From Piedraia hortae CBS 480.64 (lineage: Eukaryota), in assembly GCA_010093745.1 (NCBI GenBank), contig MU005962.1, positions 372,001 to 436,000 on the forward strand: DNA of 64,000 nt. Reading direction: 5' to 3'. Both the position numbers and the translations under genes were made by a program. The notes below the pieces were generated by a model. The model ran no database searches. It was given only the letters and a program-made list of their open reading frames with translations, and had not been told where the DNA came from. Each line of letters starts with the position of its first letter. Within the stretch, counting starts at the first letter, position 1. Positions 314-19,997 of this stretch are shown in pieces.

Positions 314-1992
314 CTATGCCCGCAAATACAGGCTCGGTAACCTTAGCTCTTCGATGTCTTTGATGACCAGATCAAAAGGAATCATACTGGACATACTTGT
401 AAAACTGTTTGAAGCGAACCCCAAGCCCATGATGGAAGCGGTGGGACTTCCCCAGTCGTCAGAGGACTCATCCAGCAAAACCATACTGCCCGAACCTCCA
501 AGTTGCAAGAAGAGTGGCTCGTTCGTGCCGTTAACAATGTCCCGGCAAAGTGCGTGTGTGGCCTTTTTTAAAGCTCGACAGGCACAACCATCCTAGAGTC
601 ATCTCGGAGATTTAGATGACAGGCTACGCGGTTTACCCGGCCGGCTGTCCACTGTGAGGTGCGCCCATATTTTACCACTTTGTATTCGCCCTCTGGGTAA
701 GCATTTTCCACTTGATAGCGTTGCTCAAATGGGGCAGCCTCATGGCAACCATGGGGTTGTGTGGGGTAGGCATCGAGAGATCCAGCGACGCTCGTAGCAT
801 GATTAGGCCCCATTTAAGGGCCCATTTCAGCCCGCGGCTAAAGGCACATCTCTCCACATCCTCCTTTCGCAATGAGGGTGGGTTGTCTGACCTGATGGTA
901 GTCTTCCTCGGCGGCAGTTTTACTTTCCACGGTATTCAGGTCATTCTCCAGAGTTTCAACGAACTTCGTGTGATCCTCGTTGGAAGGACTGAGCACCTCG
1001 ATGTTGTGAATAGGAGCAATGATACCACTGTTTGGTGATAGTGGTTCATATACGGCAGGAAAAGCGGGATTACATCCCAGGACGTGGTAATGTGTGAGCC
1101 CAAATAGGCCAAGATCTCTCCCGTATTTCGTTGTAAGCCTCAGACGGCCACCACGCATGCCAGAGCCGACTGAAACATCGGTGCTGATAGAAGCGCCTAG
1201 ATTCAAATCGGCATAAGACGTTGCATTCACCTTGGGGCCCAGTATTCCTGACCTTTCAGCGCATTTGTCGACTGCAAGCCTATTCAGATAGGACAACTCT
1301 ACCTCCTAGGTGCCCCTTTCTGATGCAAGCATCCATCGAATCGTCGGCAAAATTTAAATCCACCAGACGTCGTTATTCGCGTCGCTGATCGTGATGACAA
1401 TTGTTGCCTTGAAGGGATTGGGGTTGTGGCCGTTGATGCGGCTTGGACGCTGCCACAGCAAGTCGACCGTTAGCCAGTCCAAGTGGTCAAACACGGCAAA
1501 AATTCTCGAATGCAGCCTTGTCCAGGTTGTGATCTCGTCCCTGTCAGAAGGCACCATGGTGCGTGTTTTTAAGCCCCCTGGATGGACGTAAACGTTTAGC
1601 ACCTCAACATGGACATCATCGTATTTTTTTGAGCGTTTAGAATCGCCCTAATACGCCAGATTGCGTTCTCCCATATTTGGGCCGATCCTTCTGTGGCGAA
1701 ATCATTGACCAAGAGGAAGATTGTGAGAGGCCCGCTGCCAACAGGCTGGTTCTGGTGATATTGTCTGGCTAGCTTGGGACGTCCCCACAATACCGACCTG
1801 TTCTGCGCAAGCAGCATTCCGGATTAGCGGAAGGATTTGGTAGATTCCCTTCGTGCGATCACTTTGCTCTGTTGGTGTCGATAACACAGGCATTATCAAC
1901 AGTATCGGGTGGCCCATACGATACACCACGCGCTTGTCAATCCCAGAATTATGCATGTCATCGTTGTTACGAAAATCATGTTGGATAGTCAT
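314..1992 (-). pseudogene. Frameshifted remnant of a fungal trypsin-fold (Ssy5/S64-like) serine protease-like gene
   Basis: Collinear minus-strand fragments in different frames carry GLTHYHVL (His motif), VVKYGRTSQWTAGRVN and FLQLGGSGSMV (usually GDSGS), then IMGLGFA. Several stops and frameshifts lie between the fragments. Confidence 0.6.
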
Positions 1993-3048
1993 GGTGCCCC
2001 TAGACTTATTAAGTTTTACACCTACCCGGTCTGTGCCCGCTGGTAGATATTGTCAGAAGCTATAGCTCTTGGGTGTTCCAACCAGCTTGCCTGTGTAGAT
2101 CGCACAGGCTTTTCGTAGTCAATTTACCTTTTCGACAAAGTTTTTGGGGTCAACGTCACGTAGTAGTGTGACGTTGGCGAGTGCGGCCAATCGTCCCTAA
2201 GGGGCGGCTTGGCAGAGATGTCTTCTTCCTATCATAGCCAGTCCCACATACGCGGAACACCTCACTTCACGCCTTCTCAGAGCAATGCTCTCCGCCTGCA
2301 TAAACGTGCATTGAATCCGAACGTTTAACCACTCGGTTTTGAAGTCATGTGTAAGGAACGTGATTTGTAGGGTGCTTGACTCAGTGTGATGATTGCGACT
2401 AGGTGTGGTGGGTGACATCGACATAAGGCTTGGCACAAGTGTTCAGCACATCGGCCCACTACTGAACAAAAATCAGCCGGTGCGTGTACGTCATGCAGCG
2501 TGACTTGGTACGCCAATGTCCGATGTTACCGCCCCTCTCTTTCCGGCGTCTCTGAGGCTGCATTGTCTTTTCTCTCCTCTTAATGCGTTGTTCTCTGTCT
2601 CGTTTGCTTTCCATTGTCTTTTTATCTCCCAGCCTCCATCCCTCGTACCTTCCTGCCTCTCGTTCCTCATCCTCGGTCTTGCGCCATGAGGAAAGTCGTC
2701 ATGAGCTTATGACGCTACGACCTTTGGGAATCTCTCGCATTCCCTATAACGGTGTCCTGGATTCATTCAGCCACCTTCTTCAGCGTCTAGGTTTGCCTTG
2801 CGAGGCGACATAAGAGGCAAAGGCGGACAGGTGAAAAAGTCAACCGCCGCGCATGTGAATAGCTGCGCGTAGCGCTATGATTGGCCGATCTGCACTATGT
2901 AATTTACCGCCGTGGATATGGTTGTGTGGACTCTTCCCCGCAGCTGCAAGCAGCTTCCCGAGCCGCGTGGGACCCCCGCAGGGTTCCCAGAAGCCAATCC
3001 AGATTACACAGCTTGTACTCGATCCTGAATCCCTCACACGTCTGGACT

Positions 3049-3861
3049 ATGGTCATGAATTGGCTTGCTGTCCTTCAAGTTCCCGTTTTAATTTTCTCTT
3101 ACTGGAATGCATGTTCCTACCTGGCCAAGTCGGCCAGTGTGCTGCACGGTAGGAACATTAGCTTGCTCATTGCCCACCCAGATGATGAGGCCATGTTCTT
3201 TGCTCCTACTCTGCTTTCATTGACGAAACCGGAATTAAAGAACCAGGTCTCAATATATTGCTTAAGCAGTGGGAATGCAGACGGACTCGGATACGTGCGA
3301 CAGTCTGAACTTTACCAAAGTGCGCTTCAGCTGGGAGTCGAGTCGGGTGAACGCGTTACAATTATAGACGACGTGAAATTCCCCGACTCCATGATGGGAA
3401 TTTGGGATCCCGAACTCATTTCCAATGAGCTAGCAAAAAACCTTGCAAGCATTAACACCATAATCACTTTTGATGAACGCGGGATCAGCCAGCATCCTAA
3501 CCACATCTCGCTGTTTCACGGCGCAAGGCGCTTCATACAGCAATCTCAAGCACCAATCCAGCTATACACACTTAGTTCTGTCAACATTGTGCGGAAGTAC
3601 AGCAGCATATTGGACTCTATCTGGACTTTATTGCATTCGACTTGGAGGAACTTCTCTGCTCGTAATAACCTAAAATGCGGCGATTTGCCAGCAGTGCTTG
3701 TGACAGTTAGCACGCCAGCAGATGTGCGCAGAGCCCAAAAAGCTATGACAACAGCTCATCGCAGCCAGATGCGGTGGTTCAGGTGGGGATGGATAGGGTT
3801 AAGTCGGTACATGGTTGTCAATGATCTTCAACTGTCTTGCAACGGCCAGAGCGGGCAATAG
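3049..3861 (+). CDS. GPI12: N-acetylglucosaminyl-phosphatidylinositol de-N-acetylase (PIG-L/Gpi12)
   Basis: N-terminal hydrophobic segment, LLIAHPDDEAMFFAP, GNADGLG, ITFD..GISQHPNH and AHRSQMRWFRWGWI motifs. ATG at 3049 or 3055; intronless. Confidence 0.93.
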   Translation: MVMNWLAVLQVPVLIFSYWNACSYLAKSASVLHGRNISLLIAHPDDEAMFFAPTLLSLTKPELKNQVSIYCLSSGNADGLGYVRQSELYQSALQLGVESGERVTIIDDVKFPDSMMGIWDPELISNELAKNLASINTIITFDERGISQHPNHISLFHGARRFIQQSQAPIQLYTLSSVNIVRKYSSILDSIWTLLHSTWRNFSARNNLKCGDLPAVLVTVSTPADVRRAQKAMTTAHRSQMRWFRWGWIGLSRYMVVNDLQLSCNGQSGQ

Positions 3862-17335: not shown

Positions 17336-17833
17336 TGGATGCCTGTATGAGTTTTTCTGCTGACGATGATATGGATATTGGAATAATATACTTGCCTTCC
17401 AATGCTATTGACCTTGTTAAAGATTACATTTAAGTTAGAAGCCACAAATTTTGATTATAAAGGTCTATTGTATTCTATTGCTTCACGGTAACGCCTCCAA
17501 CGGTAGCTGCATTCGAAAACAAGTATCATGGCTCGAGTGGCTTCGTAACGTGTGCTCAACCTCGTGCAACACAAACATACACTCAGATGAAATCTTGGAT
17601 CACTGGCCGCCGCAGACGCACGCCATATGTACCATCAAGACGTTAAAAGTTTACTTTGGCAAGAGTCAGCCATATAGTGGACTCTATCAATGTCTGCAAA
17701 ACTTTCAGAAAGCAAGGCTGCTCGCAGGATTTGCTGACGCCGCAATCACATATTGATGAGCAAGGGGGCCGTTATTAGTTGCATTGATTGTTCTGGCAGA
17801 GTGGCATTACATGAACAAGAAAGCCACTGGCGG

Positions 17834-19225
17834 CTATTTTTGCTTGAACCACGCGCACTGCAAAGCATGTCCAATGTCCAATCGCTTCTCCATGTCCAGT
17901 TCCAGGCATCCCTTGGTCAGCTCAACTACCTCATCCGCCACGCCCCCTCCTTGTTCAACCGCCGCGCGAAGGATGGTTTCATCCCAATCAGCCCGCATGA
18001 TGCGTTCCACCGTTGCTGCTGGGAACGGACCCCTGAAGGGCAGATCTCCCGTGCACAAGGTGTAAACGACTATGCCAAATGCCCACATGTCACCTGCTGT
18101 TTCAAACAGCTTCCGCCTGACGGACAAGCCCCTAGGCGAGGCGTACTCGAGCGTGCCAATAACGGAAGACGTGGTGGGCTTGCCCATTTCAGCCGCCGCG
18201 TGCTTCAAAGCCTGGTAGGATTTGTCGCCAGGAACATTGTCGATGAAGTCCGCAAGTCCGAAGTCGCAGAGCAACAGCCGCACCTCCGATCCTGAACGGT
18301 CGACGAGGCAATTTTCTAACTTGATGTCGCGATGGCAGACACGCACGTCTTGGTGGAGATAGCGCAGAGCCGAGGCGAGCTGATAGGAATAAAGCCTGGC
18401 CGTGTCTGGAGAAAGCCCTCCTCCTACTGCCTGACGGGATTGTATTACGACGTCGTGCAGCGTGCCACCGACAACGAGGTCCATGAAACAGTAGGTGGCG
18501 TACTCGGTCTCGTGAACGGTGCGTAGACGGAGGATGTGGTGATGAATCAAATGGCGCCAGACCGAAACCTCGTGTTCCAGTGACTGCTGCGCCCGTTCGT
18601 TCTCGCTGGCGCTACGGTCAGGTATGGCCTTGCGCACAACCTTGACAGCGCGAGCTATGGGCACTCCGGCCGCCGAAATAGACTGTACCTCCTTGACAAC
18701 GCCAAAGCCGCCTCTGCTAATGGTGCGGCCGACCACCCAGCGGTCGTCGTCGGGGCCGATCTCTTGACCTTCATCATCGGGTTTGGGGTCGTCAGGGGAT
18801 GGCTCAGGGTCGGCTCGGGTCAAGCCGGTGAGGAAGGCGTGGGCAGGGCTGATGCTGGTGGTCGCCGAGGCGGAGCGGCGGGACGAGCGGGCGGAGCCGG
18901 GACCTGTATTCCGGATAGGAGGCCAAGGGGCACTGCCAACCGACGTGGATATCGATATAGGTGACGCGAGGTTGCTAACTGAACGACCTTCCGGGATGGA
19001 CAATGCGTGGATGGGGAGGCCTGGGGAGTAGGAGAGTGGTGACGGTTCTTCAGTCCACGGGAATGGGGAGCCCACCGCTGCCGCTTCACGCTGCCGACCC
19101 AGCTGGCTCGTCATAAGCGGGTTTGGTGTCCTCGGGGCGTCGCGGGGGGCTTTTGCCGGAGCGTGCTGCTCCTCCGGTCTTGCCGCGGGCTTGACGCGCG
19201 ATGGGGACGGGTACGCGGCGTCCAT
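17834..19225 (-). CDS. Ser/Thr protein kinase (CAMK-like, resembling Nnk1); first in-frame ATG at 19225
   Basis: ISRGGFGVV (Gly loop), AVKVVRK, HEVSVWRHL, HRDIKLENCL, CDFGLA, GTLEYASP, GDMWAFGIVVY; no introns in the catalytic domain. Confidence 0.9.
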   Translation of the reverse strand: MDAAYPSPSRVKPAARPEEQHAPAKAPRDAPRTPNPLMTSQLGRQREAAAVGSPFPWTEEPSPLSYSPGLPIHALSIPEGRSVSNLASPISISTSVGSAPWPPIRNTGPGSARSSRRSASATTSISPAHAFLTGLTRADPEPSPDDPKPDDEGQEIGPDDDRWVVGRTISRGGFGVVKEVQSISAAGVPIARAVKVVRKAIPDRSASENERAQQSLEHEVSVWRHLIHHHILRLRTVHETEYATYCFMDLVVGGTLHDVVIQSRQAVGGGLSPDTARLYSYQLASALRYLHQDVRVCHRDIKLENCLVDRSGSEVRLLLCDFGLADFIDNVPGDKSYQALKHAAAEMGKPTTSSVIGTLEYASPRGLSVRRKLFETAGDMWAFGIVVYTLCTGDLPFRGPFPAATVERIMRADWDETILRAAVEQGGGVADEVVELTKGCLELDMEKRLDIGHALQCAWFKQK

Positions 19226-19865
19226 CGTCGGTGATGGCGTAACTGTCGAATGAAATTGACTTGCCCCGTCGTGTGAAGCTCTCCTGTAGCGCCTCAAGCT
19301 CTGCTGTCTTCTGTTCGGCGCGATTGGTGGTGAAAGTGCGCCAGTCGAGCGGCGTTGGCGGCGGGTGTGGCGGTGACGGTGGCAGACGCTCAGGATCGCT
19401 GTCCTCTGTCCCGCTGTCCTCTGTCCCGCTGCCCTCTGATTCACTGTCCTCGAGGTACTTTGTGCCAGCAAATGGTGACGCAACCGTGTGGCGTGACGGC
19501 TTTTCCGATGGGGCAGCAGCAGCGTCCTTGGCGTCGTCGAAGGCGGTAGGGTCGGCAGCGTTGTTGTTGTTGTTGTTGTTGCTGTCGTCGTCGCTGCTCT
19601 CGTCTAGGTAGGCGAGGGCACCAGCAGCCTGGACGGCGGCAGAGCGCGAGTTGCGGCGGGGTTGGGTAGCAAGGGATGCGGGAGCGGGAGGATCTAGGGA
19701 TTCATCTCTGTCCACTTTTGGGGCGGGGCGGGGCGGATCTTTGACTGCTTTGCGAGCTGGACGGCTTTCGTCGTCGTCGCTGTCGTCAAACGGATGACGC
19801 GACGGCCGTCTACCAGAGTCAGGCCGCAGGCCCTTGAAATGGCGTTGGATGTCGTAGGCTGCCAT
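19086..19865 (-). CDS. 259-aa upstream ORF overlapping the kinase ORF in another frame (possible N-terminal half of the kinase)
   Basis: ATG in CACCATGG context, protein-like motifs RHTVASPFAG and EALQESFTRRGKSISFDSYAITDDG, frame-preserving repeats, stop TGA at 19088-19086 inside the kinase frame. Confidence 0.7.
   Translation of the reverse strand: MAAYDIQRHFKGLRPDSGRRPSRHPFDDSDDDESRPARKAVKDPPRPAPKVDRDESLDPPAPASLATQPRRNSRSAAVQAAGALAYLDESSDDDSNNNNNNNAADPTAFDDAKDAAAAPSEKPSRHTVASPFAGTKYLEDSESEGSGTEDSGTEDSDPERLPPSPPHPPPTPLDWRTFTTNRAEQKTAELEALQESFTRRGKSISFDSYAITDDGRRVPVPIARQARGKTGGAARSGKSPPRRPEDTKPAYDEPAGSAA
19560..19581. repeat. (GTT)n microsatellite encoding poly-Asn in the upstream ORF; a 15-bp tandem repeat (SGTED x2) lies near 19399-19437
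   Basis: gttgttgttgttgttgttgttg and (ctgtcctctgtcccg)x2 seen directly. Confidence 0.85.
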
Positions 19866-19952
19866 GGTGAGTGGGGCCTCGGCGCCAAGCAGCGGGGAAC
19901 AGGGGAGTGGGCTATGTATGAGGGGCGGAAGCTAGATGGGTAGCGGACGACC

Positions 19953-19997
19953 NNNNNNNNNNNNNNNNNNNNNNNNNNNNNNNNNNNNNNNNNNNNN
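19953..19997. other. Assembly gap (45 N) in the divergent promoter between the kinase locus and VAC8
   Basis: Run of n characters. Confidence 1.

Follow-up and report, generated by a model that had tools for sequence, protein, structure and literature searches.

Layout of the kinase locus

We analyzed 64,000 nucleotides of the Piedraia hortae CBS 480.64 genome (contig MU005962.1, positions 372,001 to 436,000), referred to here as the window, in which a protein kinase locus is divided between two overlapping reading frames on the minus strand. The upstream open reading frame (ORF), which we call frame A, occupies 19086..19865. It begins at an ATG at 19865 that lies in a strong context (CTCACCATGG, with A at −3 and G at +4), runs for 259 codons and ends at a TGA (19088-19086), and no Pfam family matched its 259-aa product. 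This stop codon (19086..19088, context GCA GCG TGA A) sits at a frame-break position common to the orthologues. The second reading frame, frame B, is in the +1 register and holds the entire kinase between TAG codons at 19606-19604 and 17836-17834 (17834..19603). Its first ATG (19223..19225, context CCGACGATGG) arises from the GAT-GG of a conserved TDDG motif of frame A and would give a predicted kinase of 463 aa, while a second ATG (19112..19114), 26 nt 5′ of the frame-A TGA, would give one of 426 aa; the next ATG of frame B after 19114 lies inside the kinase domain. Our coordinates bear out an earlier note on this DNA, which had described the 259-aa ORF from its strong-context ATG to the stop at 19086, the intact kinase in the +1 frame with its first ATG at 19225, and about 520 nt (518 nt as computed here) over which both frames are open. 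The ATG at 19114 had been overlooked.

Frame B encodes a complete CAMK-like kinase. Its protein kinase domain (17846..18733) matches Pfam family PF00069 over residues 291-586 of the frame-B translation, with an E value of 1.6e-40 and a score of 139.6 bits against a curated cut-off of 31.7, and the lysine of AVKVV, the HRD and the DFG motifs are all present. The nearest solved chains are those of DAPK2/DAPK1 (E 8e-22). A search with the kinase part returned 650 proteins at E <= 0.001 among 8000 scored candidates, and its named matches are all from Dothideomycetes, the best non-self match being 58% identical. Identity to the orthologues is mostly 50-57%, with a range of 41-58% over the 119 matches listed. 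The first strongly conserved kinase-frame motif past the break is LSIPEG (18986..19003), which corresponds to SPQTIPEG in relatives.

Frame A carries the conserved motifs MAAYDIQ, HTVASPFAGTKYL, RGKSISF, TDDG and GKSPPRR, of which GKSPPRR (19154-19137) is the final one. It also contains in-frame tandem repeats at 19397-19438 and 19560-19585, with a 15-nt unit present 2.8 times (SGTED) and a 3-nt unit present 8.7 times (an Asn run). The statement in the earlier note that the repeats of this ORF are multiples of 3 nt is thus accurate for the two main arrays, but does not extend to weak arrays with 11-nt, 7-nt and 5-nt units. GC content by codon position along the gene was uninformative. The length of the open overlap is not beyond chance, as 27% of 500 synonymous shuffles of frame A reach 518 nt or more, and among the relatives described below it is mildly unusual in two loci (L013, p 0.018; L014, p 0.024).

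Unlike the length of the overlap, the existence of single orthologous proteins that span both frames is beyond chance. In tblastn alignments to the window, three long orthologue models, P0083 of Friedmanniomyces, P0067 of Pseudocercospora and P0026 of Hortaea, follow frame A from 19865 until roughly 19107-19056 (E values 6e-38 to 3e-40) and match frame B between about 19200 and 17843 (E values 2e-123 to 6e-142); the alignment of P0026, which is N-terminally partial, begins in frame A at 19787. A phmmer search with the upstream ORF against 1.84 billion representatives gave 27 matches at E <= 0.001. Most of these relatives stand alone, with lengths of 363-426 aa, and four carry the kinase as well. 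The upstream ORF is the methionine-free, low-complexity N-terminal region of the ancestral kinase protein. One of its stand-alone relatives, P0128, is filed as Quercus suber in NCBI nr, and is probably a fungal contamination of the plant assembly.

Two further features lie in or near frame A. A short +1-frame ORF (19604..19705) extends from an ATG at 19705 to the TAG at 19606-19604, and this ATG is the only one in any frame between the start of frame A and the ATG at 19225. In addition, a run of 48 N at 19950-19997, 85 nt upstream of the frame-A start, represents a masked stretch or a scaffold gap, so that the 5′ leader and any upstream AUGs within it are unreadable.

The frame break in relatives and its ancestral state

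A search with an alignment of stand-alone N-terminal proteins retrieved 16 metagenome loci, two of which (L002 and L003) end before the junction between the two frames. At all 14 loci that reach the junction, the N-terminal frame runs into a stop codon, after which the kinase is encoded in the +1 frame, and too little space is left there for an intron. One clade accounts for ten of these loci, and together with the window the 14 loci represent about six lineages. The distance from the stop codon to a QTIPE anchor is 82-112 nt in the 14 loci and 82-85 nt in the window, and the observed distances (82, 85, 88, 91, 109 and 112 nt) are all 1 mod 3. In annotated genomes the two parts are found as adjacent genes, as in Neophaeotheca (g4507/g4506) and Rachicladosporium (B0A51_17604/17603), and stand-alone N-terminal proteins occur in Cercospora (407 aa) and Cryomyces. 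It is highly likely that one kinase gene has been split into two overlapping +1 ORFs, and that this split is conserved and shared across many Dothideomycetes.

Three proteins (P0118, P0122 and P0135) are encoded by uninterrupted ORFs in which the N-terminal motifs, NPFT.EPVRR, the linker, SLTSES and the kinase follow one another in a single frame. P0118 belongs to the same 90% cluster as P0117, which is named Delphinella strobiligena, and P0122 is of the same kind. Since these more distant relatives, or outgroups, are unbroken, their sequences indicate that the ancestral state was a single ORF. In the broken lineages, the kinase-frame nucleotides that correspond to SLTSES read (L/I)PDIRI(D/E) in the upstream frame, and the stop codon follows 4-7 codons past this tail (within 45 nt 5′ of the stop; for example, L004:7236-7281). 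Across five lineages, the codons for P-D-I-R-I differ only at positions that are wobble positions of the upstream frame, which shows that the overprinted tail is itself under selection. The window lacks the PDIRID tail and several neighboring motifs, yet the break is kept.

An ordinary intron follows the KTNPFTG codons in many of these loci (L001, L004-L007, L009-L012 and L016). It has GTGAGT or GTAAGT at the donor site, a CTAAC element and a terminal CAG, and measures about 60-75 nt (for example, L010:2535-2607); as a consequence, many ORF-style protein calls end at NPFTG(E). The intron is precisely absent from L008:980-1100 and L015:400-520, both of which are 86-94% identical to intron-bearing loci and carry no poly(A), so that either intron loss or transcript-derived contigs would account for its absence.

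Public annotations of the locus are inconsistent, with the two parts appearing as two unrelated “hypothetical” genes, as a truncated kinase, or as fused models with invented introns. Recognition of the conserved +1 split corrects these gene models. Among individual models, the Acidomyces richmondensis kinase P0005 begins far upstream, and its N-terminus resembles a +1-frame reading of the YDP..KTNPFTG codons (compare the +1 frame of L009). The Friedmanniomyces endolithicus models P0083 and P0127 skip different segments.

Selection across the overlap and entry into the kinase frame

To see which frame is constrained where, we counted parsimony substitutions on a tree of the 10-locus clade as synonymous (S) or non-synonymous (N) in each frame (L010 and L012 are identical in this stretch). 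Between −141 and −96 nt from the stop, the 0-frame accumulated 14S/9N and the +1 frame 2S/21N. From −96 to −45, the counts were 6S/26N for the 0-frame and 17S/15N for the +1 frame (p 6e-4 against an expectation of 25% synonymous). The last 45 nt before the stop experienced only five events, 4S/1N in the 0-frame and 0S/5N in the +1 frame. Past the stop, from +3 to +70 and before the first downstream AUG, the 0-frame is not selected and the +1 frame shows 26S/5N (pN/pS 0.08). Purifying selection on the kinase frame about 96 nt 5′ of the stop indicates that in this clade the kinase frame is translated from roughly 30 codons 5′ of the stop and that the overlap is dual-coding. A kinase-frame AUG is located at −83 in nine of the 10 clade loci, and also in the related P0081, P0086 and P0087. 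Because +1-frame selection begins at about −96 nt in this clade, the stretch 19086..19225 of the window, from the first ATG of frame B to the frame-A stop, is a candidate dual-coding overlap.

Our favored reading, which we regard as about an even bet, is that translation of the kinase begins at an AUG of its own in the +1 frame, with leaky scanning, reinitiation or an internal transcript as the putative route of entry. A +1 frame change in the linker would have split a single gene, comprising an N-terminal regulatory region and a CAMK-like kinase, in an ancestor shared by a large Dothideomycete group, and the gene would have been kept since then as two overlapping cistrons. The upstream ORF (19865-19086) would make a stand-alone, disordered protein, and in most relatives the end of this protein (PDIRID plus 4-7 aa) would be an out-of-frame reading of the ancestral SLTSES sequence that is now selected. 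The kinase would be read in the +1 frame from inside the upstream ORF, starting in the window at the ATG at 19225 or at 19114. Ribosomes could bypass the upstream start by leaky scanning along a single mRNA, through a stretch with few AUGs, or they could terminate at the nearby stop and then restart; alternatively, a shorter internal transcript might carry the kinase alone. The earlier note had offered as an alternative one mRNA that makes a separate upstream protein, which throttles or partners the kinase. A separate upstream protein with an independently started kinase, perhaps from one mRNA, fits the data better than the frameshift that the note had placed possibly at GCG-UGA.

Several features of the 11 sequences with a complete upstream ORF (the window, L001, L004-L007 and L010-L014; L008, L009, L015 and L016 lack the start) are consistent with an independent start. 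In all 11, the 637-916 nt that separate the first AUG from the earliest kinase-frame AUG contain only one or two ATGs (p <= 0.045 for each against base shuffles), a density of 1.1-2.8 per kb, whereas the 1300 nt that follow have 8.5-20.8 per kb. A pyrimidine at −3 makes the context of the first AUG weak in 10 of the 11 loci, the window being the exception. Internal methionines make up 6 of 4239 residues in the 11 upstream-ORF proteins versus 8 of 419 in the N-terminal parts of the outgroups. Moreover, the window and most lineages have a +1-frame AUG no more than 120 nt 5′ of the stop, and some kinase-frame starts of relatives lie only about 7 nt (“MHDED”) or about 8 nt (“MSPT”) ahead of it. 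The +1 ATG derived from TDDG is present in the window and in 12 clade loci. We rejected it as a conserved start, since it is absent from L001, L003, L009 and L014; the TDDG motif itself was not found in L013.

A number of observations weigh against this reading. The first AUG of the window is in a strong context, which argues against much leakage here. The number of ATGs is not below that in synonymous shuffles that preserve the protein sequence, and cysteine is as rare as methionine in the upstream-ORF proteins; the AUG poverty may thus reflect a polar, Met/Cys-poor composition. The +1-frame AUGs do not keep a common position from one lineage to the next, and in L013 the 50 codons 5′ of the stop contain none at all. 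The pre-stop signal of +1-frame selection comes from one clade only, and without the deep branch the signal between −96 and −45 is weak (11S/14N, p 0.03). In addition, there are +1-synonymous events just 5′ of the AUG at −83 (8S:8N), which leaves room for a shift near −97. Finally, the long conservation and adjacency of the upstream ORF, together with an ancestor that was one chain, would also be expected if a fusion protein were still made.

Such a fusion could be produced by a programmed +1 frameshift, a possibility that we consider the main rival but rather unlikely. If ribosomes shifted at the stop codon, which reads GCG UGA A in the window, or at some earlier point of the overlap, a fraction of them would make a 676-aa fusion of the N-terminal region and the kinase, which would restore the ancestral architecture, whereas non-shifting ribosomes would stop there and release the short protein. 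In its boldest form, this proposal would have the shift conserved throughout a large Dothideomycete clade, with a regulated share of fusion beside an abundant short protein, and with the overprinted PDIRID tail and the near-invariant 45 nt 5′ of the stop acting as a stimulator. The register fits this proposal, in that the +1 arrangement with a 0-frame stop occurs in the window and in 14 of 14 loci, representing at least five other lineages, and has persisted despite many indels, with every stop-to-anchor distance remaining 1 mod 3. The +1 frame is also strongly selected from the first codon past the stop, before any downstream AUG (the 26S/5N stretch), the stop always falls 4-7 codons past IRI, the conserved part of the PDIRID tail, and the ancestor of the two parts was a single chain. 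The last 45 nt 5′ of the stop are near-invariant, with five events versus 33 and 32 in neighboring stretches, but this invariance and the conserved PDIRID peptide are explained equally well by dual coding. Published systems offer some parallels: GCG_UGA is the site of Saccharomyces cerevisiae antizyme, the UCC plus stop of the 10-locus clade recalls UCC_UGA, a common antizyme site (PMC5009743), and YIP3 of Capnodiales has two ORFs in the +1 register without a conserved slippery site (PMC3777964).

The site itself, however, is not conserved. Both the codon before the stop and the stop differ in all six lineages (CAG TAG C, TCC TAG C/T, CAG TGA T, CGA TGA A, CAA TAA C and GCG TGA A), and since selection on the kinase frame starts at about −96 nt in the 10-locus clade, a shift at the stop cannot be the sole entry into this frame. 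These two results run counter to the antizyme-like shift at GCG-UGA suggested in the earlier note. No stop codon or known shifty motif is found at about −97. The RNA fold of 19130-18960 is no better than that of shuffled sequences (z +1.20, with 180 of 200 shuffles folding as well), and the AUG poverty and weak first-AUG context would play no role in frameshifting. If it did occur, this frameshift would add a new gene to the cellular recoding cases of filamentous fungi, and would be their first in a protein kinase.

Far less probable is a spliceosomal intron, or another event at the RNA level, that removes 3n+1 nt and joins the two frames in the mRNA. This idea draws on the NCBI models P0083 and P0127 from Friedmanniomyces, each of which is one fused protein as if bridged by predicted introns, on Peltaster P0130 and Hortaea P0026, which are possibly bridged likewise, and on the real intron after KTNPFTG, about 100-130 nt upstream in many orthologues. 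Yet P0083 and P0127 do not bridge the break at the same point, and in the 10-locus clade 0-frame selection reaches the stop and +1 selection begins directly after it, which leaves no space for an intron. We screened the window for frame-restoring deletions of at least 21 nt with GT/GC/AT...AG/AC ends and obtained 918, of which 19 keep both KSPPRR and LSIPEG, the flanking conserved motifs. None of the 19 is GT-AG; two are GC-AG candidates, one only 28 nt long and the other with the donor GCCCCG. The 112-nt joining intron that had been constructed in the earlier note (19214-19103) would take the conserved GKSPPRR motif out of the protein. We also rejected an alternative 3′ splice site of the KTNPFTG intron, 16 or 19 nt downstream and thereby giving the +1 frame, since there is no +1 selection between −141 and −96 (2S/21N) and the window has no such intron.

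Contigs from two sequencing runs, X1 and X2, which derive from different samples and studies, cover the locus; X1 may be the run from which the window itself was assembled. An X1 contig over 18920-19738 and an X2 contig over 18926-19163 align to the window with 0 differences and 0 gaps, and no joints occur anywhere in 17700-19940 in the contigs of either run. The X2 contigs cover this interval entirely and thus speak against splicing to the extent that X2 is RNA; this label is only a guess, and neither the contigs nor their depths are taken as evidence of expression. Word depths in X2 are 1463-3650 over the gene, and 89 of 138 contigs are only 90-99% alike, for which deep data with error variants or a mixed population could be the cause.

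The slimmest of the alternatives, either an error of sequencing or assembly or a lesion of this strain alone, as in an incipient pseudogene, could appeal to an X1 depth of only about 9 and to the loss from the window linker of motifs kept in relatives (YDP..KTNPFTGEPVRR, PDIRID and DSADSILSKL), but is countered by the exact agreement of the X1 and X2 contigs, by the recurrence of the +1 break at that position in all 14 orthologue loci that reach the junction, and by an intact kinase ORF whose catalytic motifs are present and whose identity to the listed orthologues is mostly 50-57%. The break is real in the DNA, and neither an assembly error nor an intron is its cause. Taken together, splicing, error and a private lesion retain very little probability. 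The earlier note had named a one-nucleotide consensus error, splicing that joins the ORFs, and continuous single-ORF orthologues as outcomes that would overturn its reading; instead, the contigs of two runs contain no indel and no joint, there is no usable intron, and close orthologues share the frame break.

Significance and comparison with known systems

The locus is a clear natural case of gene fission with overprinting, in which SLTSES coding sequence came to be read out of frame as PDIRID, and purifying selection now acts on this new reading itself. By any of the proposed routes into the kinase frame, the amount of kinase made must be gated by the upstream ORF, and the locus could for this reason serve as a tractable model for non-canonical translation in filamentous fungi. 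To our knowledge, few cellular cases of such translation are known in these organisms. Full-text searches on frameshifting in Dothideomycetes or Zymoseptoria, and on overlapping ORFs, leaky scanning and bicistronic fungal kinases, gave no description of the locus among the papers listed.

Two interacting parts encoded by overlapping ORFs of one locus are found in human MOCS2, which specifies the molybdopterin synthase subunits. MOCS2 differs from the kinase locus in that it belongs to another protein family and another organism.

Bicistronic nuclear genes of green algae offer a second comparison, for which a weak first start and few AUGs are used to argue for leaky scanning (PMC11291117). As in those genes, two ORFs share one locus, the start of ORF 1 is weak in 10 of 11 loci, and few ATGs precede ORF 2. 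Unlike what is described there, the ORFs of the kinase locus overlap in the +1 register and would stem from the fission of one gene, the first AUG of the window is strong, the poverty in ATGs is within what amino-acid composition gives, and a single mRNA is here a candidate.

Coupled termination and reinitiation has been described for human overlapping ORFs such as CASQ2, whose second ORF lies in the +1 frame and starts at an AUG just 5′ of the ORF 1 stop (PMC3923131). The kinase ORF is likewise in +1, with one or more AUGs no more than 120 nt 5′ of the upstream stop and with Asp in the tail of the upstream ORF. The CASQ2-type mechanism needs an Asp-rich run, whereas PDIRIDD in relatives has two or three Asp and no run, and the window tail PAYDEPAGSAA has one Asp (in YDEPAGSAA), unlike the Asp-rich C-terminus of the CASQ2 type. 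The upstream ORF is also 259-430 codons long here, and the likeness is one of sequence features.

With antizyme (PMC5009743), the kinase locus shares the +1 register and a 0-frame stop at the junction, which is GCG_UGA in the window and UCC plus a stop in the 10-locus clade. In contrast to antizyme, the site of the kinase locus changes from lineage to lineage, selection acts on the downstream frame already 5′ of the stop, and no stimulatory structure emerged at this locus; the kinase gene is also unrelated to antizyme.

Another comparison is with YIP3, a cellular gene of filamentous ascomycetes. In most Pezizomycotina, YIP3 undergoes a −1 shift with a pseudoknot, as shown by tagging, while in Capnodiales the second ORF is in +1 and lacks a conserved slippery site or pseudoknot (PMC3777964). 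The kinase locus resembles YIP3 in having two conserved ORFs in a cellular gene of such fungi. It is a different gene, however, and the 3′ ORF of YIP3 as described there encodes an extension, whereas that of the kinase locus carries the catalytic domain.

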